Part shown: positions 1,805-26,406 of the stretch, piece after piece | Numbering within the stretch: position 1 is the stretch's first letter | Layout: each line of letters opens with the position of its first letter | DNA from: a virus | Lineage: Duplodnaviria; Heunggongvirae; Uroviricota; Caudoviricetes | Strand: one strand, 5' to 3' | Virus record (IMG/VR): IMGVR_UViG_651053023_000002 | Span: 1-28,063 of that record | DNA: 28,063 nt | Notes under the pieces: generated by a model | Told to the model about the DNA's origin: nothing | Database searches by the model: none | What the model saw: only the letters and a program-made list of their open reading frames with translations | Translations under genes and position numbers: made by a program

Positions 1805-1938
1805 ACCGCCTCCCGTTTATTATTTATCTTCTCAGCCAGCCGCTGTGCTTTCAGTGGATTTCTGATAACAGAAAGGCCGGGAAATACCCAGCCTCGCTTT
1901 GTAACGGAGTAGACGAAAGTGATCGCGCCTACCCGGAT
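1777..1938 (-). pseudogene. 3' part of a small orf60a-like gene split by IS copy 1 (5' end lies at 3249..3274, overlapping the exo stop)
   Basis: Removing the IS and one copy of the GAT duplication gives a continuous frame ATGGCGATGACGCATCCTCACGATAATATCCGGGTA... ([20 protein letters not shown]...), about 62 aa, starting at the exo stop codon, as orf60a does in lambda. Confidence 0.3.
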
Positions 1939-1980
1939 TGAACCGCCCCGGGTTTCCTGGAGAGTGTTTTATCTGTGAAC

Positions 1981-2871
1981 TCAGGCTGCCAGATCATTGT
2001 TTCCGATGGAAGCATAATAAGCTTTTTCTGCTTCTGCCGGAGGAGTATGGCCCAGCCTTCCCAGCAATCGTCGATTGTTATACCAGTCCACCCACGTTAG
2101 TGTGGCCAGTTCCACTTCTGCACGGTTTTTCCAGCTCTTACGGTGTATTACCTCCGCTTTGTAAAGACCATTGATGCTCTCAGCCATCGCGTTGTCATAC
2201 GAGTCGCCTGTACTCCCTGTTGATGCCAGTAATCCGGCTTCTTTTAGTCGCTCCGTATAGGCCAGTGACACATACTGAGAGCCTTTATCGCTGTAATGGA
2301 TGGTGCCAGACGGACGACGGGCCCACAACGCCTGCTCCAGCGCATCCAGCACGAATGTCGTTTCCATAGACGATGAGACCCGCCCCCCCACGATGTATCC
2401 GGCAAACACATCAATGATAAACGCCACATAGACGAAGCCCTGCCATGTGCTGACGTAAGTAAAATCAGCCACCCACAGCTGGTCAGGACGTTCTGCCACG
2501 AACTGACGGTTTACGCGGTCACCTGTGGCAACGGTTTTCCGGCTGACGGTAGTGCGGACCTTTTTACCCCGGAGAACACCGGCAAGTCCCATAACCGCCA
2601 TGAGGCGCGCCACTGTACATCTGGCCACCCTGATTCCTTCCCGTAACAACTGACGCCAGACTTTACGCACACCGTACACCTGATGATTTTCATCGTATAC
2701 GCGCTGTATCTCTCTCTTCAGCCAGTCATCGTGCTGCGCACGGGCACTGCGTTTATCCGGATGATGTCGCTGTTGCTGACAATGGTAATACGTTGACGGG
2801 GCAATATGCAGTTCGCTGCATACCGGTCCGACCCCGTACTGCTCACGCAGCTTATCCAGCAGTGGCATCAT
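1981..2871 (-). CDS. IS3-family transposase OrfB (DDE integrase domain), 296 aa
   Basis: [16 protein letters not shown]... with DDE-type catalytic core. Differs from the copy-2 OrfB at 6 residues, including G where copy 2 has W in GWRVSSS. Confidence 0.85.
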
Positions 2872-3194
2872 TTTTTCCAGAGGCGGTCGAACTCCGCCTT
2901 CGCAAAATAAGCGGAAGCCTGGCGAAGGATATCGTTACTGCGGCGCAGTTCACGATTTTCACGTTCCAGCTCTTTCAGACGCTGACGTTCAGCGCTGGTG
3001 AGCCCACCATCACCGCCCCCGGTATCCCGCTCATGCTGGCGAACCCAGACACGCAGAGTCTCCGGCGTACAGCCAATCTTTGGGGCAATGGAACAAATTG
3101 CCGCCCACTGTGAGTCATATTCATCCTGACTTTCCAGAACCATACGAATCGCCCGCTGACGGACTTCGGGGGAAAAACGAGTATTTTTAGTCAT
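2868..3194 (-). CDS. IS3-family transposase OrfA (HTH), 108 aa
   Basis: [22 protein letters not shown]... Identical to the copy-2 OrfA. Overlaps orfB by 4 nt. Confidence 0.85.
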
Positions 3195-3268
3195 CCTGTT
3201 TACCTCTTTCTCAGGGAGTTTAGTCTCCAGGATTTCCGGGGCGGTTCAGATATTATCGTGAGGATGCG

Positions 3269-3949
3269 TCATCGCCATTGCTCCCCAAATACAAAACCAA
3301 TTTCAGCCAGTGCCTCGTCCATTTTTTCGATGAACTCCGGCACCATCTCGTCAAAACTCGCCATGTACTTTTCATTCCGCTCAATCACGACATAATGCAG
3401 GCCTTCACGCTTCATGCGCGGGTCATAGTTGGCAAAGTACCAGGCATCTTTTCGCGTCACCCACATGCTGTACTGCACCTGGGCCATGTAAGCCGATTTT
3501 ATTGCCTCGAAACCACCGAGCCGGAATTTCATGAAATCCCGGGAGGTAAACGGGCATTTCAGTTCAAGGCCGTTGCCGTCACTGCATAAACCATCGGGAG
3601 AGCAGGCGGTGCGCATACTTTCGTCGCGATAGATGATCGGGGATTCAGTAATATTCACGCCGGAAGTGAATTCAAACAGGGTTCTGGCGTCGTTCTCGTA
3701 CTGTTTTCCCCAGGCCAGCGCCTTAGCATTAACTTCCGGAGCCACACCGGTGCAAACCTCAGCCAGCAGGGTGTGGAAGTAGGACATTTTCATGTCAGGC
3801 CACTTCTTTCCTGAGCGGGGCTTTGCTATCACGTTGTGAACTTCTGAAGCGGTGATGACGCCGAGCCGTAATTTGTGCCATGCATCATCCCCCTGTTCGA
3901 CAGCTCTCACGTCGATCCCGGTACGCTGCAGGATAATGTCCGGTATCAT
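3269..3949 (-). CDS. exo: Lambda-type exonuclease (Red alpha / Exo), 226 aa, apparently intact
   Basis: Near-identical to lambda Exo as recalled ([40 protein letters not shown]...GEQWR). ATGA overlap with the upstream bet-derived ORF. Confidence 0.9.
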
Positions 3950-4326
3950 GCTGCCACCTTCTGCTCAGTGGCTTTCTGTTTCAGGAATCCAAGAGCTTTC
4001 ACTGCTTCGGCCTGTGTCAGTTCTGACGATGCGCGAATGTCGCGGCGAAATATCTGGGAACAGAGCGGCAATAAGTCGTCATCCCATGTTTTATCCAGGG
4101 CGATCAGCAGAGTGTTAATCTCCTGCATGGTTTCATCGTTAATGGCTTTTTTGCTGGCCCCGTGGCGTTGCAAATGATCGATGCATAGCGATTCAAACAG
4201 GTGCTGGGGCAGGCCTTTTTCCATGTCGTCTGCCAGTTCTGCCTCTTTCTCTTCACGGGCGATCTGCTGGTAGTAACGCGCCCAGCTCTGAGCCTCAAGA
4301 CGATCCTGAATGTAATAAGCGTTCAT
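3946..4326 (-). pseudogene. In-frame gam'::'bet deletion fusion: GamS N-terminal ~60 aa joined to Bet C-terminal ~66 aa
   Basis: Residues 1-60 ([60 protein letters not shown]) match lambda Gam. Residues 61-126 ([58 protein letters not shown]...) match the lambda Bet C-terminus. Junction near 4146. Confidence 0.8.
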
Positions 4327-4401
4327 GGCTGAACTCCTGAAAATGGCTGTGAAAATATCGCCCGCGAAATGCCAGGCTGATTAGGAAAACAGGAAAGGGG
4401 A

Positions 4402-4608
4402 TTAGCGATTCAGGCCGTTACCGCGTCCGTCGAGAAAAACTTCCACGAGCAAATCACGGGTATAAGTGCGCTCGATGCCGCGATGCAGATAAAGCCGTCC
4501 GCGTAAATTAGCTGATGCAGTCCAGGTACCATCTTTGTGTTTGACCAGCATTCCTGGCATGACCGCACCTCGATTAACGGTCTGCGTTCCGTAATGTTGA
4601 TGAACCAT
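4402..4608 (-). CDS. KilR-like small protein (68 aa), Rac-prophage KilR family; the six-frame ORF 4402..4812 is probably an over-extension
   Basis: [66 protein letters not shown] aligns with Rac KilR as recalled ([34 protein letters not shown]...VFLGRDGLP). The internal ATG has an AGGAG Shine-Dalgarno 7 nt upstream; the longer ORF starts at TTG without one. Confidence 0.6.
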
Positions 4609-4829
4609 AAAAACTCCTGCCCGTAAGCTGGGCTGCTGAACATATAGAGACTTCTGCGCGTATTCAGGCGGTGGATGGCCGCCGGTTGTCATAACTAAGC
4701 CGCCTCGTTGAAGCGACTGAGGTATAAAGTGTTGTGTTGATTTCAGCTGGTCACACCGACGTTCACGCGTCCGTTTCACCCCTCGCACTCCCCGAAGCCT
4801 GCTGAAATTCAAACTGCGGATCTAAGCGG

Positions 4830-4881
4830 TCATCGCAACGGTGAAACAGGTGGTTACCGTATCGTTGTGTCGTTGCGATGA
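4830..4881. promoter_or_regulatory. 11-bp perfect inverted repeat (TCATCGCAACG / CGTTGCGATGA) with 30-nt spacer between pL/OL and kilR-like
   Basis: Seen directly. No U-run follows on either strand, so it is not a classic intrinsic terminator. Candidate protein-binding palindrome or leader RNA structure. Confidence 0.35.
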
Positions 4882-4889
4882 ATTTATTT

Positions 4890-4965
4890 AAAACTATAGT
4901 TGTTTTATCGTCAACAACAAAAGTTGTTTTATCGGTTGTTTTAAATATAACTGGTTGTATTTAGG
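4890..4965 (-). promoter_or_regulatory. Putative OL operator cluster and pL promoter
   Basis: Multiple copies of the (T)GGTTGTT / AACAAC half-site (4898-4904, 4912-4918, 4922-4928, 4935-4941, 4952-4958). The same motif forms the palindrome in OR. Lies just upstream of the leftward operon. Confidence 0.55.
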
Positions 4966-5047
4966 ATGGATTTATTTTGTGACTTGCATCGCATAGCGAT
5001 AACTGAAGTGAGGTGTGGTGGTTTTTTGGACGGTATGAGTTATGAGG

Positions 5048-5080
5048 GGGAGGAAAAGAAAACCCGGCGCGGTTGCCGGG
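5048..5080 (-). terminator. Rho-independent terminator downstream of the lipoprotein gene
   Basis: Hairpin CCCGGCGCGGTTGCCGGG (5063-5080), followed on the minus-strand transcript by UUUUCUUUUCC. Confidence 0.7.
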
Positions 5081-5088
5081 TATGATTA

Positions 5089-5469
5089 TCAGTCAGCCCA
5101 ACCTGATTTCGAGTTTATTTGGGTTTCTGACATTGTGTATTTCTTAATCGTGTCATCGTTAAAAAGAATAGTAAGTTCTTTTTTCGTACCGTTCGTTCCG
5201 TTATGGAATAATCCATAGAATGGAATAAAAGTGGTGCCATTAACTTTTACTTTTGCAAAGGCGTACTTCCAGATCTCCTTTCCACTGTCAGTATATGAAA
5301 CAGCATCAGGAGAACCAAAGTAAGATTTAACCTCATTCTTGGTTGTTTTACCTTCCTGAAGTTTAGACTGGACACTAATTTCAGTTTCATTTTTGAGTTG
5401 CTGGTTGCCTGAAGAAGCACACCCAGCCAATACAGATGCCATCATGGCAGCGATTAGGATTTTTCTCAT
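5089..5469 (-). CDS. Lipoprotein (126 aa) in the cI-proximal rexAB position; candidate superinfection-exclusion or defence moron
   Basis: Signal peptide with lipobox MRKILIAAMMASVLAG-C. Mature part is Lys/Thr-rich with weak BamE/SmpA_OmlA-like pattern. Same strand as and downstream of cI, with its own terminator. Confidence 0.6.
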   Translation of the reverse strand: MRKILIAAMMASVLAGCASSGNQQLKNETEISVQSKLQEGKTTKNEVKSYFGSPDAVSYTDSGKEIWKYAFAKVKVNGTTFIPFYGLFHNGTNGTKKELTILFNDDTIKKYTMSETQINSKSGWAD

Positions 5470-5698
5470 TTTATGTTTCCATTCATTATAATCAGAAACA
5501 TCTTAACATAATGATTCGAAATAAAAACCGCTACGAGATAGGGAGACATTTTGCTGACAGTAGCAACAAATCTCAGCTAACAACGAGAATATTTACTGAA
5601 ATATGCAAACAGATTTGGCGTTCTTATAGAGAATTTAGTGCAATATCTAATCCGAGTGGTATAAACCTTAACCTTCGCTCCCTTAAGTCGTAGATAAA

Positions 5699-6388
5699 TT
5701 AACCATGCTTCCTGTACGTCTGCGGCATGCTTCCAATGACCTTACCGAATATGAACACCCGGTTCATCTCGTCTTTCTCGATCGGGTCCCACGGCGAGTA
5801 GCTCTTGTTATCAGAGATAACCAGCAGCTTATCCTTCATCATTTGAAGACGTTTTACATGGGCAGTGTCGTCGTACAGAAACGCATAGATGCCATCACCG
5901 TCGAAAGATTTAACAGTGATATCAACGAACAGCAGGTCACCTGGTTCGATCGTCCCTGACATGCTGTCACCTCGCACGTTAATGATGCGGATATTTTCCG
6001 CCTTCCTGCCATCGAACATGTGACGAGCATCGTCAAACGAGTACTCAACCGAGCGTAGAACTTCTACAAACTCACGGTTGATTACACCTGGCCCGGCACT
6101 GACTTCTATATCAAGAACGTCAATTTTGAAGTATTTGGAATGGCTGACAGTTGATTGTATTGGTTGCACTGTACTGTCTGACATATTTCCAACGCCAGAA
6201 GATAACCATTCTGCGCGTACACCCAAAGCGTTCGCGATCTCCACGATTTTAGTTGTTTGGTTAGCTTTCCCTGTTTCGATTTTCTGAATAGCAGCCTGGC
6301 TAACCCCGACCAAATCCCCAAGCGCCTTTTGTGTAAGGCCTCGCGCTAATCTGGCTTCTTTAAGTCTTTCTGAGAGTGTTGTTTTCAT
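5699..6388 (-). CDS. cI: CI-type prophage repressor (HTH_XRE plus S24 LexA-like autopeptidase), 229 aa
   Basis: N-terminal HTH (LTQKALGDLVGVSQAAIQKIETGK). Ala-Gly cleavage site (VSAGPG). Catalytic Ser in GDSM and Lys in HVKRL. Divergent from the cro-like gene. No SD before the ATG, consistent with a leaderless pRM transcript. Confidence 0.85.
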   Translation of the reverse strand: MKTTLSERLKEARLARGLTQKALGDLVGVSQAAIQKIETGKANQTTKIVEIANALGVRAEWLSSGVGNMSDSTVQPIQSTVSHSKYFKIDVLDIEVSAGPGVINREFVEVLRSVEYSFDDARHMFDGRKAENIRIINVRGDSMSGTIEPGDLLFVDITVKSFDGDGIYAFLYDDTAHVKRLQMMKDKLLVISDNKSYSPWDPIEKDEMNRVFIFGKVIGSMPQTYRKHG

Positions 6389-6492
6389 AGATCAAATGTA
6401 CAACCAAGGTTTTATTTCATCAAACGAAAATGGTTGTTGACTAAAAACAACCATAGTTTTAATCTTGATTCGGATTAACCACGGAGGTTGTT
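6389..6492. promoter_or_regulatory. OR operator region with divergent pRM/pR promoters
   Basis: 23-bp palindrome TGGTTGTTgactaaaAACAACCA (6431-6453), plus half-sites ACAACCA (6400-6406) and GGTTGTT (6486-6492). Lies between divergent cI and cro. Confidence 0.65.
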
Positions 6493-6723
6493 ATGAACCC
6501 AGCAATCAAAACAGCGATCAATATCGTTGGTTCACAAAAGAAACTAGGCGATGCCTGCGAAGTTTCACAGCAGGCCGTCTATAAGTGGCTTCACAACAAA
6601 GCAAAGGTATCCCCTGAACATGTCGGCAGCATTGTTACGGCTACTGGTGGAGTTGTGAAGGCATACCAGATTCGCCCGGATCTTCCGAAGTTGTTTCCAC
6701 ACACCGAAAAGAACGCAGCTTAA
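6493..6723 (+). CDS. Cro-like HTH regulator (YdaS/Cro family), 76 aa
   Basis: Small HTH protein (LGDACEVSQQAVYKWL) divergent from cI, with GGAGG SD. Positional Cro analogue. Confidence 0.7.
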   Translation: MNPAIKTAINIVGSQKKLGDACEVSQQAVYKWLHNKAKVSPEHVGSIVTATGGVVKAYQIRPDLPKLFPHTEKNAA

Positions 6724-6792
6724 ATTTCCATTTCACGCTCTTTAACAATAAGCAATCAACTTAACAGTCAATTCAAACTAAAGGAGTCAATT

Positions 6793-7332
6793 ATGCAACC
6801 ACTTACATACCAACAGACTAGCGGATTTATTCCGACTGCGGTGATAAATCGTTCTCAAACAAAACAAGCTCCAGGCCACGAAAAAATCCGTGATGCCGTC
6901 CGCGCCTGGTCGGCTGTAGATAATCAGGATGTCGTTGCCGCACTCATTGTGAATGAGTATCGGGAGCAGGGCGACGGCACCATCGATTTCCCTGATGATG
7001 TCAGCCGTGCACGCCAGAAGCTGTTCCGCTTCCTCGATAACAAATTCGATTCTGAAAAATACCGAAATAACGTGCGTGAACTGACCCCGGCAATTCTGGC
7101 GGTACTACCGCTGGAATATCGCGGTTACCTGGTTGAGCAGGATAGCTTCATGACTCGGTTGGCTGAAATGGAAAAGGAACTCAGTGAGGCAAAACAGGCT
7201 GTCATTCTCAACGCACCACGCCACCAGAAACTGAAGGAAATGAGTGAAGGTATTGTGTCGATGTTTCGTGTGGACCCGGATCTGGCTGGTCCATTAATGG
7301 CGATGGTGACCACCATGCTGGGGGCAATATGA
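6793..7332 (+). CDS. YdaT-like protein in the cII position, 179 aa
   Basis: Segment LTPAILAVLPLEYRGYL resembles Rac YdaT (LIPAILAILPRELR) as recalled. AAGGAG SD. Sits between cro and O. Confidence 0.5.
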   Translation: MQPLTYQQTSGFIPTAVINRSQTKQAPGHEKIRDAVRAWSAVDNQDVVAALIVNEYREQGDGTIDFPDDVSRARQKLFRFLDNKFDSEKYRNNVRELTPAILAVLPLEYRGYLVEQDSFMTRLAEMEKELSEAKQAVILNAPRHQKLKEMSEGIVSMFRVDPDLAGPLMAMVTTMLGAI

Positions 7333-7418
7333 CAGGTTCAGAAATGGCGAAAGTCGGTCTGCGGGAACAGAACCGACTTTCAGGTGCAAATCGTAACACA
7401 CTCATTGCGGGAGGAATT

Positions 7419-8348
7419 ATGGCAAACACTGCTGAGATATTCAATTTTCCAGTGCCGGATGCGGCACAAAAGGAGCCGCGCGTGGCAGATCTCGATGATG
7501 GTTATACGCGCATTGCAAATGAGTTGCTGGAAGCTGTGATGCTGGCCGGATTAACACAGCACCAGCTTCTGGTCTTCCTGGCTGTCATGCGCAAAACATA
7601 TGGCTTTAATAAAAGACTGGATTGGGTGAGCAACGAGCAACTTTCCGAATTGACCGGGATATTGCCGCACAAGTGTTCTGCTGCAAAAAGCGTTCTGGTA
7701 AAGCGTGGGATTCTTATTCAGAGCGGGCGAAATATCGGCATTAATAATGTGGTCAGTGAATGGTCAACATTACCCGAATCAGGTAAGAAAAATAAAGTTT
7801 ACCTGAAAGAGGTAAATTTACCTGAATCAGGTAAGAAAAGTTTACCCAAATCAGGTAAAGGCGTTTACCCGAATCAGGTAAACACAAAAGACAAACTAAC
7901 AAAAGACAATATAAAACCTTTTTCGTCCGAGAATTCTGGCGAATCCTCTGACCAGCCAGAAAACGACCTTCCTGTGGTGAAACCGGATGCTGCAATTCAG
8001 AGTGGCAGCAAGTGGGGGACAGCAGAAGACCTGACCGCCGCAGAGTGGATGTTTGACATGGTGAAGACCATCGCGCCATCAGCCAGAAAACCGAATTTTG
8101 CAGGGTGGGCTAACGATATCCGCCTGATGCGTGAACGTGACGGACGTAACCACCGCGACATGTGCGTGCTGTTCCGCTGGGCATGCCAGGACAACTTCTG
8201 GTCCGGTAACGTGCTGAGTCCGGCCAAACTCCGCGACAAGTGGACCCAGCTCGAAATCAACCGAAACAAGCAACAGGCTGGCGTGACAGCCGGCAAACCA
8301 AAACTCGACCTGACGAACACTGACTGGATTTACGGGGTGGATTTATGA
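7419..8348 (+). CDS. O: Replication initiator O (lambda O family), about 309 aa; six-frame ORF starts earlier at 7329
   Basis: N-terminal domain with VADLDDGY...LLVFLAVMRKTYGFNK matches lambda O. Iteron-encoded linker. GGGAGG SD before ATG at 7419. Overlaps P by ATGA. Confidence 0.85.
   Translation: MANTAEIFNFPVPDAAQKEPRVADLDDGYTRIANELLEAVMLAGLTQHQLLVFLAVMRKTYGFNKRLDWVSNEQLSELTGILPHKCSAAKSVLVKRGILIQSGRNIGINNVVSEWSTLPESGKKNKVYLKEVNLPESGKKSLPKSGKGVYPNQVNTKDKLTKDNIKPFSSENSGESSDQPENDLPVVKPDAAIQSGSKWGTAEDLTAAEWMFDMVKTIAPSARKPNFAGWANDIRLMRERDGRNHRDMCVLFRWACQDNFWSGNVLSPAKLRDKWTQLEINRNKQQAGVTAGKPKLDLTNTDWIYGVDL
7770..7882. repeat. Origin of replication: five ~17-bp iterons (TTACCYRAATCAGGTAA, one variant TTACCTGAAAGAGGTAA) inside the O gene, followed by an AT-rich tract to about 7925
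   Basis: Five tandem near-palindromic repeats at about 19-23 bp spacing, then cacaaaagacaaactaacaaaagacaatataaaacc. Same architecture as lambda ori. Confidence 0.8.
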
Positions 8349-9046
8349 AAAACATCGCCGCACAGATGGTTAACTTTGACCGTGAGCAGATGCGCCGGAT
8401 CGCCAACAATATGCCGGAACAGTACGACGAAAAGCCGCAGGTACAGCAGGTAGCGCAGATCATCAACGGTGTGTTCAGCCAGTTACTGGCAACTTTCCCG
8501 GCGAGCCTGGCTAACCGTGACCAGAATGAACTGAACGAAATCCGCCGCCAGTGGGTTCTGGCTTTCCGGGAAAACGGGATCACCACAATGGAACAGGTTA
8601 ACGCTGGAATGCGCGTAGCCCGTCGGCAGAATCGACCATTCCTGCCATCACCCGGGCAGTTTGTCGCCTGGTGCCGGGAAGAAGCATCTGTTAACGCCGG
8701 GCTGCCAAACGTCAGCGAGCTGGTTGATATGGTTTACGAGTATTGCCGGAAGCGTGGCCTGTATCCGGATGCAGAGTCTTATCCGTGGAAATCGAACGCG
8801 CATTACTGGTTGGTTACCAACTTGTACCAGAACATGCGGGCCAATGCGCTGGCTGACGCGGAATTACGGCGCAAGGCTGCCGATGAACTGACCTGTATGA
8901 CAGCGCGAATTAACCGTGGTGAGACGATACCTGAACCAGTAAAACAACTTCCTGTTATGGGCGGTAGACCTCTAAATCGTGCACAGGCTCTGGCGAAGAT
9001 CGCAGAAATTAAAGCTAAGTTCGGACTGAAAGGAGCAAGTGTATGA
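8345..9046 (+). CDS. P: Replication protein P (DnaB loader), lambda P, 233 aa
   Basis: Near-identical to lambda P as recalled (MKNIAAQMVNFDREQMRRIANNMPEQYDEKPQVQQ...KFGLKGASV). Confidence 0.9.
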   Translation: MKNIAAQMVNFDREQMRRIANNMPEQYDEKPQVQQVAQIINGVFSQLLATFPASLANRDQNELNEIRRQWVLAFRENGITTMEQVNAGMRVARRQNRPFLPSPGQFVAWCREEASVNAGLPNVSELVDMVYEYCRKRGLYPDAESYPWKSNAHYWLVTNLYQNMRANALADAELRRKAADELTCMTARINRGETIPEPVKQLPVMGGRPLNRAQALAKIAEIKAKFGLKGASV

Positions 9047-9345
9047 CGGGCAAAGAGGCAATTATTCATTACCTGGGGACGCATAAGAGCTTCTGTGCAC
9101 AGGACGTTGCCGCGGTAACAGGCGCAACCGTAACCAGCATAAATCAGGCTGCGGCTAAAATGGCGCGGGCAGGAATCCTGGTCGTTGATGGTAAGGTCTG
9201 GCGAACGGTGTATTACCGGTTCGCTACCAGAGAAGAATGGGAAGGAAAGGTGAGCACGAATCTGATTTTTAAGGAGTGTCGCCAGAGTGCCGCGATGAAA
9301 CGGGTATTGAGGGTATATAAAAGAACATCAATGGGAACACAATGA
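9043..9345 (+). CDS. ren: Ren (Rex exclusion resistance) protein, lambda ren-like, 100 aa
   Basis: MTGKEAIIHYLGTHKSFCAQDVAAVTGATVTSINQAAAKMARAGILV... matches lambda Ren. Confidence 0.85.
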   Translation: MTGKEAIIHYLGTHKSFCAQDVAAVTGATVTSINQAAAKMARAGILVVDGKVWRTVYYRFATREEWEGKVSTNLIFKECRQSAAMKRVLRVYKRTSMGTQ

Positions 9346-9412
9346 TGAAACAGGTGAGTTGAGTTCAAACTGTAGTACAATTCTCTCCAGTTTGAACAGG
9401 AAAGAATATGCT

Positions 9413-9745
9413 ATGAACCCTTATATTTATCTTGGTGGTGCAATACTTGCAGAGGTCATTGGTACAACCTTAATGAAGTTTTCAGAAGGTTTTACACGGT
9501 TATGGCCATCTGTTGGTACAATTATTTGTTATTGTGCATCATTCTGGTTATTAGCTCAGACGCTGGCTTATATTCCTACAGGGATTGCTTATGCTATCTG
9601 GTCAGGAGTCGGTATTGTCCTGATTAGCTTACTGTCATGGGGATTTTTCGGCCAACGGCTGGACCTGCCAGCCATTATAGGCATGATGTTGATTTGTGCC
9701 GGTGTGTTGATTATTAATTTATTGTCACGAAGCACACCACATTAA
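9413..9745 (+). CDS. emrE: Small multidrug resistance efflux transporter EmrE (110 aa)
   Basis: MNPYIYLGGAILAEVIGTTLMKFSEGFTRLWPSVGTIICYCASFWLLAQTLAYIPTGIAYAIWSGVGIVLISLLSWGFFGQRLDLPAIIGMMLICAGVLIINLLSRSTPH matches E. coli EmrE, including Glu14. The six-frame ORF has an 18-codon upstream extension. Confidence 0.95.
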   Translation: MNPYIYLGGAILAEVIGTTLMKFSEGFTRLWPSVGTIICYCASFWLLAQTLAYIPTGIAYAIWSGVGIVLISLLSWGFFGQRLDLPAIIGMMLICAGVLIINLLSRSTPH

Positions 9746-9775
9746 AATAATTTGTTTCTAAACGACTAAAATATG

Positions 9776-9808
9776 GAGGCTCTTATATTTATATGAGCCT
9801 CGTTTTAT
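9776..9808 (+). terminator. Rho-independent terminator after emrE
   Basis: Hairpin GAGGCTC-ttatatttatat-GAGCCTC followed by GTTTTATGCTTTTT. Confidence 0.6.
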
Positions 9809-9999
9809 GCTTTTTGTTAATGTCTTTATTTTTTATGTATTCTTTTGTGCTTTCAAGATTATGGCGTAAGAAAATTGCAATACGATTATTGTTGTATATT
9901 CAAGATAATGTGACCTTAATTGTCTTTTTAAATAAAAAATAAACAAAAATTATATCCCACCACTAAGGTTTATAAAAGCATACGTTAGCAGGTGTCACC

Positions 10000-10569
10000 A
10001 TGAAAAAAGCCATAGCATATATGCGATTTTCATCACCAGGTCAGATGTCTGGCGACTCATTAAACCGACAGAGAAGACTTATTGCTGAATGGTTAAAGGT
10101 AAATAGTGATTATTATCTTGATACCATAACATATGAAGATTTAGGATTAAGTGCATTCAAAGGAAAGCATGCACAATCAGGAGCTTTTTCGGAATTTTTA
10201 GATGCTATAGAGCATGGTTATATATTGCCAGGAACTACATTGTTAGTTGAAAGTCTGGACAGACTTTCAAGAGAAAAAGTCGGTGAAGCGATTGAACGTC
10301 TGAAATTGATTTTGAATCACGGTATTGATGTTATAACTCTTTGCGACAATACAGTCTATAATATTGGCTCTTTGAATGAGCCATATTCATTAATAAAAGC
10401 CATACTTATAGCACAAAGGGCAAATGAAGAAAGCGAGATAAAGTCAAGTCGGGTTAAATTATCATGGAAGAAAAAACGGCAGGATGCACTGGAATCAGGT
10501 ACGATTATGACGGCGTCTTGTCCGAGATGGCTCTCCTTAGATGACAAAAGAACGGCTTTTGTTCCAGAC
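10000..10569 (+). pseudogene. ybcK: ybcK (serine recombinase, resolvase-type N-terminal domain), 5' part, interrupted by IS2
   Basis: N-terminus MKKAIAYMRFSSPGQ... fits a resolvase catalytic domain with Ser nucleophile context. The reading frame runs into the IS2 terminus at 10570. Confidence 0.8.
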
Positions 10570-10580
10570 TGGATTTGCCC

Positions 10581-11486
10581 CTATATTTCCAGACATCTGT
10601 TATCACTTAACCCATTACAGGCCCGCTGCCGCAGATATTCCCGTGGCGAGCGATAACCCAGCGCACTATGCGGATGCCATTCGTTATAATGCTCGAACGC
10701 CTCTGCAAGGTTCTTTGCTGCCGTTAACCCGTCTGGTTTGGGCATGATACTGATGTAGTCACGCTTTATCGTTTTCACGAAGCTCTCTGCTATTCCGTTA
10801 CTCTCCGGACTCCGCACCGCCGTGTTCTTCGGTTCAAGTCCCAACATCCGGGCGAACTGGCGTGTTTCATTAGCCCGGTAGCATGAACCATTATCCGTCA
10901 GCCACTCCACTGGAGACGACGGAAGATCGTTGCCGAAGCGGCGTTCCACCGCTCCCAGCATGACGTCCTGTACTGTTTCACTGTTGAAGCCGCCGGTAGT
11001 GACCGCCCAGTGCAGTGCCTCACGATCACAGCAGTCCAGCGCGAACGTGACACGCAGTCTCTCTCCGTTATCACAGCAGAACTCGAACCCGTCAGAGCAC
11101 CATCGCTGATTGCTTTCTTTCACGGCCACTCTGCCTGTATGTGCCCGTTTCGATGGCGGTACAGCAGGTTTTCGCTCAAGCAACAGCGCATTCTGGCGCA
11201 TGATCCGGTAAACACGTTTGGCATTGATCGCAGGCATACCATCAAGTTCTGCCTGTCTGCGAAGCAGCGCCCATACCCGACGATAACCATACGTTGGCAG
11301 CTCTCCGATAACATGGTGTATACGGAGAAGCACATCCGTATCATCAGTGTGACGACTGCGGCGGCCATCCATCCAGTCATCGGTTCGTCTGAGAATGACG
11401 TGCAACTGCGCACGCGACACCCGGAGACAACGGCTGACTAAGCTTACTCCCCATCCCCGGGCAATAAGGGCGCGTGCGCTATCCAC
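10581..11486 (-). CDS. insD: IS2 transposase InsD (OrfB), 301 aa
   Basis: [34 protein letters not shown]... with DDE integrase core. Matches IS2 InsD. Confidence 0.9.
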
Positions 11487-11809
11487 TTTTTTGCCCGTCC
11501 ATATTCAACGGCTTCTTTGAGGAGTTCATTTTCCATCGTTTTCTTGCCGAGCAGGCGCTGGAGTTCTTTAATCTGCTTCATGGCGGCAGCAAGTTCAGAG
11601 GCAGGAACAACCTGTTCTCCGGCGGCGACAGCAGTAAGACTTCCTTCCTGGTATTGCTTACGCCAGAGAAATAACTGGCTGGCTGCTACACCATGTTGCC
11701 GGGCAACGAGGGAGACCGTCATCCCCGGTTCAAAGCTCTGCTGAACAATTGCGATCTTTTCCTGTGTGGTACGCCGTCTGCGTTTCTCCGGCCCTAAGAC
11801 ATCAATCAT
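11444..11809 (-). CDS. insC: IS2 transposase InsC (OrfA), 121 aa
   Basis: [53 protein letters not shown]... Overlaps insD in the frameshift window. Confidence 0.85.
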
Positions 11810-11905
11810 CTGTTCTCCAATGACTAGTCTAAAAACTAGTATTAAGACTATCACTTATTTAAGTGATACTGGTTGTCTGGAGATTCAGGGGGCCAGTCTA
11901 CAGAC

Positions 11906-12862
11906 CCCGACAGGGTGAAAACTATTGAGCTAATTTTTAAACTCAGGATGGAAAGGCGCTCATTGAATGCAATAGCCAAGTATTTAAATGATCATGCTGT
12001 AAAGAATTTCTCAGGAAAAGAAAGTGCATGGGGACCTTCTGTAATTGAAAAATTATTAGCGAATAAAGCTCTGATAGGTATTTGCGTACCTTCATATCGT
12101 GCAAGAGGGAAAGGGATAAGTGAAATCGCTGGCTATTATCCCAGAGTCATATCAGATGATTTGTTTTACGCTGTACAGGAAATTCGGTTGGCACCTTTTG
12201 GTATTAGCAATAGTAGCAAGAATCCTATGCTAATAAATCTACTTCGAACAGTTATGAAGTGTGAGGCTTGTGGTAATACCATGATTGTTCATGCGGTATC
12301 TGGAAGTTTGCATGGCTATTATGTTTGTCCGATGAGAAGATTACATCGATGTGACAGGCCATCAATAAAAAGAGATTTGGTTGATTATAATATCATTAAT
12401 GAATTGCTTTTTAATTGTAGCAAAATTCAACCAGTTGAAAACAAGAAAGATGCTAATGAAACTTTAGAGTTAAAAATTATTGAGCTTCAGATGAAAATTA
12501 ATAATTTAATCGTTGCATTGTCTGTCGCGCCTGAAGTTACCGCTATAGCAGAGAAAATAAGACTATTAGATAAGGAATTACGAAGGGCTTCGGTATCATT
12601 GAAAACTTTGAAGAGTAAAGGTGTAAATTCATTCAGTGATTTTTATGCTATTGACTTAACCAGTAAAAATGGACGAGAGTTATGCCGTACACTTGCCTAT
12701 AAAACATTCGAAAAAATCATAATTAATACGGATAATAAAACCTGTGATATCTATTTTATGAATGGCATTGTTTTTAAACACTATCCTTTAATGAAAGTAA
12801 TATCCGCCCAGCAGGCGATAAGTGCTCTCAAATATATGGTTGATGGTGAGATTTATTTCTAA
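11906..12862 (+). pseudogene. ybcK: ybcK, 3' part (recombinase C-terminal region)
   Basis: Frame is continuous with 10000..10569 once IS2 and one CAGAC copy are removed. Restored product is 508 aa. Cys-rich segment CEACGNTMIVH...YYVCPMRRLHRCDRP suggests a zinc-ribbon recombinase domain. Confidence 0.8.
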
Positions 12863-13326
12863 ATAATGATCTCGGATTTTAAGTTATGCTATGGTGATAA
12901 AGTGCAAGACAGAATTAATTATCTTTGACGAAACTTAATGGGTAATTACTTTGTTTGCTCCCACAAGCGAGTTTTGTACGGCTGTATTGGGGTAGTAAAT
13001 GAGCTATACAATCTTAATCATTTGTTAGGTGAGAACTCTTGGTCGCAGATTCAAATACTGAAAATACGTGACAAATTATTATGAGCAAAATGGTGTATGT
13101 CACGTATTTTGAATGGTAGGTTAAAAAATAACACCGACTTTCGTAGGTGTTACTAATAATAAAGCAGAGTTTTTAGATAGTATCAATGTGCTTTGTGTAT
13201 ATTGTGGCAAATAATTGGGTTGGGGGTACAATTGTGATTGCTTTTGCATGAACATTGCGCCTTTATGCATAATGAGATAAAGGAATATCAAATAAAATAA
13301 CGATAGGTCATAACAAAGAGGTTTTT

Positions 13327-13878
13327 ATGAAAACACTTATCGTTTCAACTGTATTGGCATTCATAACATTTTCTGCGCAGGCTGCAGCATTTCAGGTCAC
13401 TAGTAATGAAATAAAAACAGGAGAGCAACTTACAACGTCTCATGTCTTTTCTGGATTTGGGTGTGAAGGTGGTAATACATCGCCCTCATTAACCTGGTCT
13501 GGTGTTCCTGAAGGTACCAAAAGCTTTGCCGTAACTGTATATGATCCAGATGCACCTACAGGCAGTGGTTGGTGGCATTGGACTGTTGTTAATATTCCAG
13601 CAACAGTAACATATTTGCCCGTTGATGCAGGGAGACGTGATGGAACAAAACTGCCGACTGGTGCTGTTCAAGGCCGAAATGATTTTGGCTATGCTGGGTT
13701 TGGTGGCGCATGTCCTCCTAAAGGAGATAAACCACATCATTACCAGTTTAAAGTATGGGCTCTAAAAACTGAAAAGATTCCTGTAGATTCTAACTCCAGC
13801 GGAGCGTTAGTTGGTTATATGCTTAATGCTAATAAAATCGCAACCGCTGAGATAACACCAGTTTATGAGATAAAGTAG
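13327..13878 (+). CDS. ybcL: Periplasmic PEBP/RKIP-family protein YbcL (183 aa)
   Basis: Signal peptide MKTLIVSTVLAFITFSAQA. PEBP motifs (YDPDAP, GWWHW, HHYQFKVWAL). Matches DLP12 YbcL. Confidence 0.85.
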   Translation: MKTLIVSTVLAFITFSAQAAAFQVTSNEIKTGEQLTTSHVFSGFGCEGGNTSPSLTWSGVPEGTKSFAVTVYDPDAPTGSGWWHWTVVNIPATVTYLPVDAGRRDGTKLPTGAVQGRNDFGYAGFGGACPPKGDKPHHYQFKVWALKTEKIPVDSNSSGALVGYMLNANKIATAEITPVYEIK

Positions 13879-13887
13879 GGTGAGAGT

Positions 13888-14685
13888 ATGCTGGCAAGAG
13901 GTAAGACTAACTTAAAGATCGAAGAAATACGGATGCATAAACATCATGAGATTCATAGGGTTAAGCCTCTTATGCCAGCTTTGTGTCGTATCCGTCAGGG
14001 AAAGAAAGTTATCAATTGGGAGACGCATACTTTAACTGTTGATAATAATCAAATAATATTATTTCCTTGTGGTTATGAATTTTATATTGAGAATTATCCT
14101 GAAGCAGGGCTTTATCTTGCAGAAATGCTTTACTTACCCATTGATTTAATTGAGAGTTTCCAAAAACTTTATACGGTAACTGATCAAATACGTAACAAAA
14201 CAAGTTTCTTTTTACCTCAGAATCCTGAGTTAATATATTGTTGGGAGCAACTAAAAACATCTGTTTCCCGAGGCTTCTCAACTAAAATTCAGGAGCACTT
14301 AGCAATGGGCGTTCTACTTTCGTTAGGAGTGAATCATGTTAATCATTTACTTTTATCATATAGTAAACAATCATTGATAAGTCGTTGTTATAACCTGCTG
14401 CTATCCGAACCCGGCACAAAATGGACAGCAAACAAGGTTGCTCGATATCTCTACATTTCTGTTTCTACATTACATCGCCGTCTAGCAAGCGAGGGGGTAA
14501 GTTTCCAAAGTATACTGGACGATGTGAGGTTAAATAATGCGTTGTCTGCTATACAAACGACGGTAAAACCTATAAGCGAGATTGCCAGAGAAAATGGTTA
14601 TAAGTGTCCTTCTCGTTTTACTGAAAGATTTCATAATCGTTTTAATATAACACCAAGAGAGATAAGAAAAGCTTCCAGAGAGTAA
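13888..14685 (+). CDS. ybcM: AraC-family transcriptional regulator YbcM (265 aa)
   Basis: C-terminal AraC HTH ([25 protein letters not shown]...[32 protein letters not shown]). Confidence 0.85.
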
Positions 14686-14801
14686 AAGTGTTTTAAGAAG
14701 GAGCAATTCTATCGATTTTGATTTTGGGAAATCAACACGGCATAATTATGTCACCGGAGCCTGAACAACTCCGGTGACTTCTGCGCTAAACGGGGACGTT
14801 T

Positions 14802-14903
14802 ATGCGCACATACAATCCAAACTCTCTTCTCCCTTCACAGATGCAGAAATGCACCTGCAATTCTTTGCATCTAGCGTTTGACCTCTGCGGAGGGGAAGCG
14901 TGA
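14802..14903 (+). CDS. ylcH: Small protein YlcH-like (33 aa)
   Basis: ATG with [36 protein letters not shown], ending in overlap with the ybcN GTG start. Position matches DLP12 ylcH. Confidence 0.45.
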
Positions 14904-15355
14904 ACCTCTCACAAGACGGCATCAAATTACATCGCGGCAACTTCACCGCTATCGGTCGGCAGATCCAGCCTTATCTGGAGGAGGGCAAATGCTTTCGCAT
15001 GGTGCTTAAACCGTGGCGTGAGAAACGCAGTCTTTCCCAGAATGCACTCAGCCACATGTGGTACAGCGAAATCAGTGAATACCTCATCAGCAGGGGTAAA
15101 ACGTTCGCCACTCCAGCTTGGGTAAAAGATGCTCTCAAACACACATATCTCGGTTATGAAACCAAAGACCTGGTTGATGTCGTAACCGGTGATATCACCA
15201 CTATCCAGTCGTTACGCCATACCTCCGATCTTGATACCGGAGAGATGTATGTCTTCCTGTGTAAGGTTGAAGCCTGGGCGATGAATATTGGTTGCCACCT
15301 GACTATTCCACAGAGCTGCGAGTTCCAGCTGCTGCGCGACAAGCAGGAGGCGTAA
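14900..15355 (+). CDS. ybcN: YbcN (DLP12 nin-region protein), 151 aa
   Basis: [30 protein letters not shown]... GTG start. TAATG overlap with ninE. Confidence 0.8.
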
Positions 15356-15525
15356 TGGCTACACCGCTTATTCGTGTCATGAACGGACACATCTACAGAG
15401 TACCAAATCGTCGTAAGCGTAAACCTGAGCTGAAGCCATCCGAAATACCAACACTGCTCGGATATACCGCCAGCTTGGTTGATAAAAAATGGTTGCGACT
15501 GGCAGCAAGGAGGAGTCATGGCTGA
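15355..15525 (+). CDS. ninE: NinE (56 aa)
   Basis: [56 protein letters not shown] matches lambdoid NinE. The six-frame ORF is extended upstream. Confidence 0.8.
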   Translation: MATPLIRVMNGHIYRVPNRRKRKPELKPSEIPTLLGYTASLVDKKWLRLAARRSHG

Positions 15526-15808
15526 TTTGAGAAAAGCAGCGCGTGGTCGGGAATGCCAGGTAAGAATCCCTGGCGTATGTAATGGCAACCCTGAAACGTC
15601 TGTACTGGCACATATCCGGCTGACTGGATTGTGCGGCACCGGTACGAAACCGCCAGACCTGATTGCCACCATTGCATGTTCTGCCTGCCACGACGAAATC
15701 GACCGCCGCACGCATTTTGTTGACGCTGGATATGCAAAAGAATGCGCGCTGGAAGGTATGGCGAGAACACAGGTTATCTGGCTGAAAGAGGGGGTTATTA
15801 AGGCGTGA
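15518..15808 (+). CDS. ybcO: YbcO (nin-region Cys-rich putative nuclease), 96 aa
   Basis: [34 protein letters not shown]...[11 protein letters not shown]. Start taken at the internal ATG after AGGAG. Confidence 0.75.
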
Positions 15809-16167
15809 ATACCTACAGCATCACATTACCCTGGCCTCCGAGCAATAATCGCTATTACCGCCATAATCGCGGGCGCACGCACGTCAGCGCAGAGGGGCAG
15901 GCATACCGCGATAACGTCGCCCGAATCATTAAAAACGCAATGCTGGATATCGGCCTGGCTATGCCTGTGAAAATCCGCATTGAGTGCCACATGCCGGATC
16001 GCCGTCGCCGTGACCTGGATAATCTGCAAAAAGCCGCTTTTGACGCACTCACTAAAGCAGGTTTCTGGCTGGATGATGCTCAGGTCGTTGATTACCGCGT
16101 TGTGAAGATGCCTGTTACCAAAGGTGGGAGGCTGGAACTGACCATCACCGAAATGGGGAATGAATGA
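15805..16167 (+). CDS. rusA: Holliday-junction resolvase RusA (120 aa)
   Basis: [36 protein letters not shown]...[28 protein letters not shown] matches E. coli RusA. Confidence 0.9.
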
Positions 16168-16304
16168 TGTTTGAGTTTAATATGGCAGAACTTCTTCGCC
16201 ACCGCTGGGGGCGTCTGCGCTTATATCGTTTCCCCGGTTCTGTTTTGACCGATTACCGAATACTGAAGAATTACGCCAAAACCCTGACAGGAGCAGGAGT
16301 ATGA
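16164..16304 (+). CDS. ylcG: Small protein YlcG-like (46 aa)
   Basis: [50 protein letters not shown] overlap with rusA. Confidence 0.5.
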
Positions 16305-16389
16305 AGTCAGAGATAACAATCAACTAATACTGTTTTGTTGATTTTTGCTTGTAATTGGCGTTCTGGTCTGATTTTTGTGGAGTAAGTTG

Positions 16390-16773
16390 ATGCGTGATAT
16401 TCAGATGGTTCTTGAGCGTTGGGGAGCGTGGGCGGCTAATAATCATGAAGATGTGACCTGGTCGTCCATTGCCGCCGGTTTTAAGGGATTAATTACTTCA
16501 AAAGTAAAATCTCGCCCGCAATGTTGTGACGATGACGCGATGATCATTTGCGGGTGCATGGCCCGTCTGAAAAAGAACAACAGCGATTTGCACGATTTAT
16601 TAGTAGATTATTATGTAGTCGGTATGACATTCATGTCACTGGCAGGTAAGCATTGCTGCTCTGATGGTTATATCGGGAAAAGGTTACAGAAGGCTGAGGG
16701 CATAATTGAAGGGATGTTAATGGCATTAGATATCCGGTTAGAGATGGATATCGTTGTTAATAACTCTAATTAA
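16390..16773 (+). CDS. quuD: Late-gene antiterminator Q homologue QuuD (127 aa)
   Basis: [22 protein letters not shown]...Cys-rich ([19 protein letters not shown]...HCCSDG). Located after the nin region and before the lysis cassette. Confidence 0.8.
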
Positions 16774-16785
16774 TATGCCAATTGT

Positions 16786-16824
16786 TTACTAAAAATTATT
16801 AAAAATGGGGCGTTGAGACGCCCC
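16786..16824 (-). terminator. Rho-independent terminator for the nmpC transcript
   Basis: Hairpin GGGGCGTTGAGACGCCCC (16807-16824), followed on the minus transcript by AUUUUUAAUAAUUUUU. Confidence 0.6.
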
Positions 16825-16912
16825 CAAAAATAAAGGGTAATATATAACAGAAGGTTTATATAGTTAGAAGCAAGGTTGTGCTTCTAAAGGAAGTGGCTTG
16901 AGGGAGCCACTT

Positions 16913-16952
16913 ATATGTTGGGGAGGCAACGCCTCCCGCAACATATCTTTTT
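16913..16952 (+). terminator. Rho-independent terminator on the plus strand, downstream of quuD
   Basis: Hairpin ATATGTTG-GGGAGGCaacgCCTCCC-gCAACATAT followed by CTTTTTCG. Confidence 0.55.
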
Positions 16953-16962
16953 CGTAATCAGA

Positions 16963-17001
16963 TTAGAACTGGTAAACCAGACCTACAGCAACGATGTCAT
17001 C
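16963..17001 (-). pseudogene. nmpC: nmpC porin, 3' terminal fragment (last 12 codons plus stop) separated by IS copy 2
   Basis: Encodes DDIVAVGLVYQF-stop, the canonical porin C-terminal beta-strand ending in Phe. Confidence 0.85.
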
Positions 17002-17055
17002 TGAACCGCCCCGGAAATCCTGGAGACTAAACTCCCTGAGAAAGAGGTAAACAGG

Positions 17056-17382
17056 ATGACTAAAAATACTCGTTTTTCCCCCGAAGTCCGTCAGCGGGCG
17101 ATTCGTATGGTTCTGGAAAGTCAGGATGAATATGACTCACAGTGGGCGGCAATTTGTTCCATTGCCCCAAAGATTGGCTGTACGCCGGAGACTCTGCGTG
17201 TCTGGGTTCGCCAGCATGAGCGGGATACCGGGGGCGGTGATGGTGGGCTCACCAGCGCTGAACGTCAGCGTCTGAAAGAGCTGGAACGTGAAAATCGTGA
17301 ACTGCGCCGCAGTAACGATATCCTTCGCCAGGCTTCCGCTTATTTTGCGAAGGCGGAGTTCGACCGCCTCTGGAAAAAATGA
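17056..17382 (+). CDS. IS3-family transposase OrfA, 108 aa
   Basis: Identical to the copy-1 OrfA. Confidence 0.85.
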
Positions 17383-18269
17383 TGCCACTGCTGGATAAGC
17401 TGCGTGAGCAGTACGGGGTCGGACCGGTATGCAGCGAACTGCATATTGCCCCGTCAACGTATTACCATTGTCAGCAACAGCGACATCATCCGGATAAACG
17501 CAGTGCCCGTGCGCAGCACGACGACTGGCTGAAGAGAGAGATACAGCGCGTATACGATGAAAATCATCAGGTGTACGGTGTGCGTAAAGTCTGGCGTCAG
17601 TTGTTACGGGAAGGAATCAGGGTGGCCAGATGTACAGTGGCACGTCTCATGGCGGTTATGGGACTTGCCGGTGTTCTCCGGGGTAAAAAGGTCCGTACGA
17701 CCATCAGCCGGAAAGCCGTTGCCGCAGGCGACCGCGTAAACCGTCAGTTCGTGGCAGAACGACCTGACCAGCTGTGGGTGGCTGATTTTACTTACGTCAG
17801 CACATGGCAGGGCTTCGTCTATGTGGCGTTTATCATTGATGTGTTTGCCGGATACATCGTGGGGTGGCGGGTCTCATCGTCTATGGAAACGACATTCGTG
17901 CTGGATGCGCTGGAGCAGGCGTTGTGGGCCCGTCGTCCGTCTGGCACCATCCATCACAGCGATAAAGGCTCTCAGTATGTGTCACTGGCCTATACGGAGC
18001 GACTAAAAGAAGCCGGATTACTGGCATCAACAGGGAGTACAGGCGACTCGTATGACAACGCGATGGCTGAGAGCATCAATGGTCTTTACAAAGCGGAGGT
18101 AATACACCGTAAGAGCTGGAAAAACCGTGCAGAAGTGGAACTGGCCACACTAACGTGGGTGGACTGGTATAACAATCGACGATTGCTGGGAAGGCTGGGC
18201 CATACTCCTCCGGCAGAAGCAGAAAAAGCTTATTATGCTTCCATCGGAAACGATGATCTGGCAGCCTGA
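17379..18269 (+). CDS. IS3-family transposase OrfB, 296 aa
   Basis: DDE transposase. Has the W in GWRVSSS where copy 1 has G. Confidence 0.85.
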
Positions 18270-18311
18270 GTTCACAGATAAAACACTCTCCAGGAAACCC
18301 GGGGCGGTTCA

Positions 18312-19373
18312 ATCAGTGCTTACACCGAGTGCTTTAGTGAAGTCATTTTTGTCAAGCAGGTTGATTTTGTAATCAACGAAAGTAGACATATTTTTGTTGA
18401 AGTAATAGGTTGCACCTACATCAACATATTTGACTAAGTCCTGATCGCCCCATACTCCAAGATCCTTACCTTTAGATTGCAGGTAAGCAACGGACGGACG
18501 CAGACCGAAATCGAACTGATATTGTGCAACAGCTTCGAAGTTTTGGGCTTTATTAGCAACGAAGTGATCAGCAAATACAGTCATATTCTGGGTTTCAGAA
18601 TAGGTAGTGGCCAGGTAAATGTTGTTAGCGTCATATTTCAGACCTGCGGCCCAAACTTCTGCATTTTTACCGGAAGCAAATACTTCAGGAAGAACTTTCC
18701 CTGCATTAACTTGAGTGTCGGTACGATCAGATTTCGCATAAGTTGCACCGATACCGAATCCTTCGTATTCATAGGTAGCAGAGAAACCGAAGCCATCACC
18801 GTTACCTTCAGTGTAGTTATCGAAATCGCTACGATCGTTTTTGCCTTGGTACTGAGCAGCAAAGTTCAGACCATCAACCAGACCAAAGAAGTCGTTGTTA
18901 CGATAGGTTGCAACACCAGTTGCACGTTGAGTCATGAACACGTCGGTTTGAGTCCAAGTGTCACCACCGAATTCTGGCAGGACGTCAGTCCACGCACCGA
19001 TGTCGTATGCTACACCGTAGTTACGGCCGTAATCGATGGAGCCGTAGTCACCGAATTTCAGGCCAGCGAAGGCAAGACGGGTTTTATCTTTGGAGGAACC
19101 TTGAGATTCAGCGCGGTTGCCTTTGAATTCATATTCCCACTGACCGAAACCAGTCAGTTGATCGTTGATTTGGGTTTCACCTTTGAAGCCAAGATGGGCA
19201 TAAGTAGTATCACCATCATCTGCATCATTAGAGGAGAAGTAGTGCTTAGCATTAACTTTCCCGTACAGATCCAGCTTGTTACTGTCTTTATTATAAATTT
19301 CAGCTGCCTGAGCAGACATCGCCATCAGTACTGATGCAGCTACAGCAGAAATTGCCACTGTTAATTTTTTCAT
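18312..19373 (-). pseudogene. nmpC: nmpC outer-membrane porin (OmpC/OmpF family), 5' 354 codons, truncated by IS copy 2
   Basis: Signal peptide [23 protein letters not shown] then [17 protein letters not shown]...[22 protein letters not shown]...[17 protein letters not shown]. Frame is continuous with 16963..17001 after removing the IS and one ATC. Confidence 0.85.
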
Positions 19374-19800
19374 CGTGAGCCCTTTTTTTGAACTATTATT
19401 AAAAAATGATGTCACTGCGCGATAAATATTCATCTAATCAATGTGATTATTTCAAGATGTAAGTTTTGGTTTCTCGTTTGATTTGTGAAGTAGATCTCTA
19501 TTTTTATCTGAACTTTTTTCTATCGAATCCTATTCATGGCTCTTGGCTGAATAAAAATAAATCTATTAGCCAATTTATATTAACGGCTGTTATTTATAAG
19601 CGCTCTATAATTTGAAGGTTCAATTTAAACCGGCTAAAAATAACACTGGAAATTATTTTTTGGTTATTTGTTGAGATTTGCTTATGTATTTGTAGTGGTG
19701 TTTTCAATACTCGGTAGCATTCTCTCAAATATCATTTAGTGGTTTACGTACGTAAAAAATTGGTTATGCTGTTAAGAGTGGTTACTTCGTCACACAGCTT

Positions 19801-19842
19801 AAACCCGCCGTCGAGCGGGTTTTTCCATTTTTTGAGTCTCGA
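19801..19842 (+). terminator. Rho-independent terminator upstream of the lysis cassette (candidate tR' of the late leader)
   Basis: Hairpin AAACCCGCcgtcgaGCGGGTTT followed by TTCCATTTTTTG, about 100 nt before essD. Confidence 0.6.
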
Positions 19843-19945
19843 TATTAGCTGATAACCCAATACCTGAGTTATTCACTGACTCCGAGTCTGTTACGTTTCG
19901 TAGTATTCCCTCAATTTACACCCGCTTTGTCTGCGAGGTGGGGTT

Positions 19946-20161
19946 ATGAAATCCATGGATAAGTTAACAACGGGTGTCGCCTATGGCACCTCAGCAGGTA
20001 GTGCCGGGTACTGGTTTTTACAGCTGCTAGATAAAGTCACTCCCTCACAGTGGGCAGCAATAGGTGTGCTGGGTAGCCTGGTATTTGGCCTGCTGACGTA
20101 CCTGACAAACCTTTATTTCAAGATTAAAGAAGATAAGCGCAAGGCTGCGAGAGGTGAATAA
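19946..20161 (+). CDS. essD: Phage 21-type pinholin S (71 aa)
   Basis: [71 protein letters not shown]. Two TMDs. Matches S21/EssD. Confidence 0.85.
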
Positions 20162-21116: not shown

Positions 21117-21147
21117 AGCTGACCATATCGATGGGCAACTCATGCAA

Positions 21148-23381: not shown

Positions 23382-26406
<3,025 letters not shown>

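Follow-up and report, generated by a model that had tools for sequence, protein, structure and literature searches.

The single pair of long inverted repeats in the window analysed here, the whole stretch of 28,063 nucleotides, very probably arose by two independent simple insertions, which placed two isoforms of IS629 in a DLP12 prophage whose 13.7-kb interior between the copies is unflipped. Inversion of that interior is a potential of the arrangement only. Gene content and position identify the host element as DLP12, a cryptic lambdoid prophage, carried here by an E. coli strain and adjoining the argU tRNA-Arg gene.

A repeat search over the whole window found one long repeat, an inverted pair at positions 1936-3259 and 16991-18314 (99% complementary), and no direct repeats of at least 30 bp. 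Direct reading placed the limits of the elements at 1939-3248 on the minus strand (copy 1) and 17002-18311 on the plus strand (copy 2), 1310 bp each, with a gap of 13,753 bp between them (3249-17001). The repeat-finder match overran these limits by 11 bp and 3 bp, because ATC flanks both copies when read in the orientation of the IS and because their left flanks are alike (CACGATAATATC vs AACGATGTCATC). Both copies have the termini TGAACCGCCCCGG...CCGGGGCGGTTCA, which form imperfect TG...CA terminal inverted repeats with 13/13 and then 22/25 matches, end against end. Base-by-base comparison revealed 13 nucleotide differences (99.0% identity), all of them within orfB, at IS positions 521, 641, 644, 695, 698, 702, 714, 723, 728, 761, 864, 954 and 1251. 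No difference was found in the 108-aa OrfA, and the 296-aa OrfB exhibits six residue changes from copy 1 to copy 2 (V109I, T113A, T116A, G163W, Y193H and N292D). An earlier note on this DNA had already given the coordinates, strands and 1310-bp size of the two copies, together with identical termini, identical OrfA proteins and six OrfB changes; every one of these numbers was right.

On the evidence of their coding capacity and sequence identity, both repeats belong to the IS3 family and, within it, to the IS629/IS1203/IS3411 isoform group, with copy 2 assigned to the IS1203 isoform. In copy 1, orfA lies at 2868-3194 and orfB at 1981-2871, both on the minus strand; in copy 2, orfA lies at 17056-17382 and orfB at 17379-18269, both on the plus strand, with orfB in the -1 frame, which is open from 17316. 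Domain searches identified HTH_Tnp_1 in OrfA, and HTH_21, rve (the DDE core) and rve_3 in OrfB, which scored 316 bits against the NCBIfam model NF033516 (transpos_IS3; cut-off 160). The DDE triad D136, D195 and E231 is present in both copies, and its residues are kept in 71, 72 and 56, respectively, of 75 distant homologs (<80% identity) collected in a search of 1.84 billion representative proteins. A full-length ALIL pseudoknot (Rfam RF01497; 121.5 bits in each copy against a cut-off of 50) was found at 2797-2913 on the minus strand and at 17337-17453 on the plus strand. This structure is the frameshift stimulator of IS3411 (PMC5009743), and the PGAP annotation of an element identical to copy 2 includes both a 'programmed frameshift' and the same pseudoknot. 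Judging from position, the slip site is probably the U_UUU at 17343-17346, 5 nt upstream of stem 1, in preference to the A6 run at the orfA stop; slippage at either site gives a 404-aa fusion, as implied by the 1214-nt joined CDS in the PGAP annotation.

Over all of its 1310 bp, copy 2 is 100% identical to many copies annotated by PGAP as 'IS3-like element IS1203 family transposase', in O157:H7, where this isoform is abundant, and elsewhere. IS1203 and IS3411 are treated as isoforms of IS629 (PMC3271280), and the IS1203-family element of PGAP is the one named IS629 in the O157 literature. The earlier proposal that the elements are IS629/IS1203/IS3411 rather than IS3 proper is thus upheld by the NF033516 score, the domains, the ALIL pseudoknot and the 100% identity to PGAP IS1203 copies. 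The repeats share with this group the 1310-bp length, TG...CA ends, a 108-aa OrfA, a 296-aa OrfB in the -1 frame, the ALIL pseudoknot, 3-bp duplications and a preference for prophages; for IS629, target duplications of 3-4 bp have been described and 62% of the copies are located in prophages (PMC3271280). They differ from it in two respects: copy 1 represents an isoform that diverges by 1% and whose catalytic core carries W163G and H193Y, and neither insertion site is present among 5,426 complete E. coli genomes. IS3 proper and IS2 also possess orfA and orfB, a -1 frameshift and a DDE rve core, but sequence identity puts both repeats with IS1203/IS629 instead. IS3 itself is about 1258 bp long, and the IS2 copy of this same prophage, unlike the 1310-bp repeats with their 3-bp duplications, has 1331 bp and a 5-bp duplication.

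The two insertion sites were found unoccupied in an IS-free relative, the locus of E. coli HNSQ2209 annotated as DLP12 prophage beside tRNA-Arg (L001), which carries intD, exo, the repressor and replication genes, emrE, ybcK to quuD, the porin gene, essD/rrrD/rzpD, bor, nohD remnants, appY and ompT. BLAST comparison of the window with this locus yielded four plus-strand blocks in the same order (1-1938, 3249-10569, 11901-17001 and 18312-28063), the first three of which contain 0 mismatches, that is, 14.4 kb without a substitution. At each IS629 site, neighbouring blocks share exactly 3 bp of L001, with 100% identity on either side. Indeed, the single GAT at L001 5936-5938 aligns to both GAT triplets that flank copy 1, the outer one at 1936-1938 and the inner one at 3249-3251, and the single ATC at L001 18350-18352 aligns to both ATC triplets that flank copy 2, the inner one at 16999-17001 and the outer one at 18312-18314. 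Because L001 has each triplet only once and the alignments overlap by exactly 3 bp, both triplets are true target duplications and both copies are simple insertions, so that the earlier claim of a separate 3-bp duplication for each copy (GAT and ATC) stands. A 25-kb query against the 5,426 complete E. coli genomes found the same structure in none of them; the best matches were 100% identical but lacked about 4 kb.

By the same comparison, the IS629 insertions are dated to after the split from HNSQ2209; recent movement of both copies is implied by the clean duplications that they carry at sites left empty in 100%-identical relatives. We infer from the 0 substitutions over 14.4 kb relative to the IS-free locus that all three IS insertions of the prophage are recent. 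The third is an IS2 copy (10570-11900, minus strand; 1331 bp, 99.9% identical to an IS2 labelled by PGAP), which interrupts the ybcK recombinase gene, is flanked by the 5-bp duplication CAGAC at 10565-10569 and 11901-11905, and is absent from HNSQ2209.

Read in the orientation of the IS, the duplications of both copies are ATC, and the left flanks (3238-3259 and 16991-17012) share the pattern ACGATnnnATC. The target preference of the element was assessed in a sample of 45 unique IS629 sites with both flanks, drawn from public viral contigs and previously retrieved loci. Perfect 3-bp duplications were found at approximately 30 of these sites, with diverse triplets, and neither the ATC triplet nor the flank motif was found among the 45. 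Since these other sites show no ATC and no motif, the shared ATC is probably a coincidence, even if one that was unlikely a priori (about 1/64 counting only the triplet). IS629 has no known target consensus (PMC3271280).

Each insertion interrupted a gene. On the right, the nmpC-type porin gene is cut off by copy 2 after its first 354 codons (18312-19373, minus strand), 11 codons before the natural stop; the frame runs ...GVSTD up to 18312-18314 and then meets a stop codon inside copy 2. Its severed 3' tail (DIVAVGLVYQF plus stop) was read directly at 16963-16998 on the minus strand, on the other side of the element, and is collinear with the porin gene of L001, in agreement with the earlier statement that the nmpC halves around copy 2 are collinear. 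The truncated product would lack the last beta-strand and the terminal Phe. On the left, copy 1 split a DUF1317 gene, located immediately downstream of exo, after its first 8 codons, separating the gene start (MTHPHDNI; 3249-3272, minus strand) from the remainder at 1777-1938. This gene has 60 codons and overlaps the stop codon of exo, which is intact.

Inactivation of the DLP12 porin was found to have occurred independently in different strains. In the window, the gene is disrupted by IS629 (16963-19373), 11 codons from the stop; in HNSQ2209 (L001 18314-19412), it carries a 1-bp insertion and frameshift that matches window position 18989; and in O39:NM strain F8704-2 (L002 18961-21356), an IS629-type element lies in the middle of the gene. 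The DLP12 of K-12 carries nmpC::IS5, an insertion close to the 3' end of the gene that inactivates the porin; gene, prophage and proximity to the 3' end are the same as here, whereas the IS and its site are different. In addition, in a related prophage of E. coli TW10573 (L007 3162-4375), the 3' end of exo holds an independent IS1203 that is oriented like copy 1. As this insertion lies only a few tens of bp from the site of copy 1, the exo/DUF1317 junction has been struck more than once.

The DNA bracketed by the two copies (3252-16998) is native DLP12 sequence, collinear with and 100% identical to the IS-free L001 apart from the IS2 in ybcK. It contains exo, the bet/gam remnants, a kil-like gene, the repressor gene, a cro-like gene, a ydaT-domain gene, O, P and ren, followed by emrE, ylcJ, ybcK::IS2, ybcL, ybcM, ybcN, ninE, ybcO, rusA, ylcG, quuD and the 3' tail of the porin gene. 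The genes bet and gam persist as fused remnants (region 3946-4326 of the window; L001 6633-7013), and the structural genes from nohD to J are deleted, so the prophage is cryptic irrespective of the IS insertions. To the right of copy 2, 17 substitutions separate the window from HNSQ2209, 16 of which are clustered within approximately 500 bp (24921-25413) in a truncated J gene remnant. This cluster looks like a recombination patch in the fragment of the host-specificity (J) tail gene.

Across both insertion points, the window and the IS-free DLP12 run collinearly on a single strand, and for this reason the 13.7-kb interior lies in its ancestral orientation, with no net inversion. The earlier note had warned that the duplications by themselves could not exclude a past inversion and had relied on collinearity around copy 2 to argue against one. 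Both parts of this reasoning proved sound: the triplets are non-discriminating, as each is ATC when read along its IS, and the collinearity with L001 extends over both insertion points. It is very unlikely that the present arrangement is a flipped isomer, produced by an odd number of homologous recombination events between the copies. The ATC duplications would indeed look intact after such a flip, and a crossover within the identical inner 520 bp would leave no chimeric IS; nevertheless, the 100% identity on one strand with the HNSQ2209 prophage across both sites contradicts it, as do the gene order int-exo-repressor-O-P-emrE-nin-Q-porin-lysis, which is the annotated DLP12 order and the canonical lambdoid one, and the halves of the porin and DUF1317 genes, each of which faces its own partner. 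Past inversions that were even in number, or crossovers within the 520-bp tract that a re-inversion later undid, would be invisible.

Intramolecular replicative transposition, in which one copy gives birth to the other as an inverted duplicate, inverts the DNA between them and leaves reverse-complement target repeats, is barely conceivable here. The arrangement GAT-IS-GAT ... ATC-IS-ATC would fit if the old and new triplets happened to be reverse complements, but the interior is not inverted, the copies differ at 13 positions, and each is 100% identical to a different widespread haplotype. Moreover, the route used by IS3-family elements is copy-out-paste-in with a circular intermediate, driven by an OrfAB fusion that results from a programmed -1 frameshift, and not cointegrate-type replicative transposition; this too speaks against such an origin. 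Because each copy equals a separate haplotype existing elsewhere, neither is a chimera of both over positions 521-1251, and the two are not mother and daughter. Next to nothing can be said for a composite transposon that entered as one unit with emrE as its cargo: inverted IS copies do bracket a drug-efflux gene, but the outer flanks are GAT and ATC and form no direct repeat, a separate duplication accompanies each IS, and the DNA inside belongs to DLP12 itself, found in the same place with 100% identity in IS-free relatives. Net inversion, intramolecular replicative inversion and a composite transposon were rejected on these grounds, namely collinearity, the two haplotypes, and unmatched outer flanks together with a native interior. 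An assembly artefact, with misplaced IS copies or an arbitrary orientation of the interior, is hardly credible either. Inverted repeats of 1.3 kb are a classic source of short-read misassembly; here, in contrast, the copies keep distinct haplotypes, the exact 3-bp duplications match empty sites, and the orientation is the ancestral one. Two independent simple insertions thus remain the best explanation, each of which generated its own 3-bp target duplication, with production of OrfAB by -1 frameshifting presumably stimulated by the ALIL pseudoknot.

The anatomy of the pair suggests that it could nonetheless support inversion, so that the corresponding proposal of the earlier note is sound as a deduction. 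The two copies offer 1310 bp of inverted homology at 99% identity, with perfect tracts of 520, 296, 119 and 102 bp, the longest of them at the inner, orfA-side ends (2729-3248 and 17002-17521). A plausible reading is that the pair would be a competent substrate for RecA-dependent inversion, a potential that we infer from this anatomy; the ancestral orientation alone was seen in the comparison of the window with L001. In E. coli O157:H7, a 1.15-Mb inversion between 174-bp inverted repeats located in two prophages has been reported (PMC7430833), and prophage-dependent large rearrangements have been described (PMC8743559). Those cases and the present one have in common inverted homologous repeats within prophage DNA; however, the O157:H7 inversions were observed and involve different prophages, whereas here the repeats lie in one cryptic prophage, 13.7 kb apart, and inversion is a potential only. 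If the segment were flipped, quuD (the Q antiterminator gene) would be parted from the lysis genes, and int from the other early-left genes (exo and the bet/gam remnants). The effect of such a flip would be negligible because the prophage is already defective. The 16.4-kb structure could flip by recombination and can also be misoriented by short-read assemblers.

Searches for the two insertions in other genomes were negative. Queries of 120 bp covering both outer junctions found no contiguous match among the 5,426 complete E. coli genomes, only nearby, different insertions, and queries composed of the IS with 1 kb of flank on each side found only insertions at other sites among the matches examined. 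Genome, metagenome and viral contig collections contained no exact 30-mer match to either outer junction, and the truncated porin, looked up as an exact protein with each of two alternative start codons, gave no match.

The two copies differ in the predicted state of their transposases. Copy 1 is 100% identical over its 1310 bp to another widespread haplotype, found in O26:H11 strain 11368, O103 strain RM8385 and related strains. In the set of 75 distant homologs, position 163 of OrfB is W in 72 and position 193 is H in 74, a conservation on a par with that seen at the catalytic positions D136 (71/75) and D195 (72/75). Copy 1 carries G and Y at these positions (W163G and H193Y), and its match to the rve model drops from 96.9 to 87.9 bits. 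Among 44 full-length copies drawn from viral contigs and complete-genome loci, the two substitutions are restricted to the copy 1 haplotype, and the nearest other haplotype, 4 nt away, retains both W and H. Substitution of two near-invariant residues of the catalytic core probably impairs the transposase of copy 1. A 141-bp diagnostic segment of copy 1, tried for haplotype counting, was dropped, being common to many isoforms, including those of CFT073, S88 and IAI39.

The copy 1 haplotype occupied one orthologous site, from cptA to an IS110 remnant beside iha, in 6/6 other genomes sampled, all of O26/O103 type, and the one pair of flanks read at this cptA-iha copy showed no duplication. We tentatively consider it possible that copy 1 is an impaired full-length isoform, frozen at cptA-iha elsewhere, that was moved in trans to its new site here by an IS1203-type transposase acting on its identical ends. 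If true, this would be a natural non-autonomous, full-length IS parasitising its active isoform. As a separate matter, the population of this strain might hold both orientations of the interior. It is rather unlikely that an IS1203-type copy inserted first and that gene conversion from the cptA-iha copy subsequently replaced its orfB region. The occurrence of the haplotype at a single orthologous site in all six other genomes would be in line with conversion, and this single site together with the near-invariant core substitutions makes autonomous movement of copy 1 doubtful; however, the conversion tract must cover at least positions 521-1251 with no mosaic, and mobilisation in trans by a functional OrfAB on identical ends is at least as simple. 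The window itself holds nothing that discriminates between trans mobilisation and gene conversion as the origin of copy 1.

Nothing about the case is new in kind, since both the IS and the cryptic prophage that holds it are well known. What is gained is mainly annotation, as the element can now be named as a member of the IS629 group, with copy 2 as the IS1203 isoform. For the strain, the comparison indicates that its cryptic prophage took three recent IS hits, in the porin gene, the DUF1317 gene and ybcK. The recurrent, independent inactivation of the DLP12 porin and the probably defective isoform represented by copy 1 are of minor interest for IS biology.
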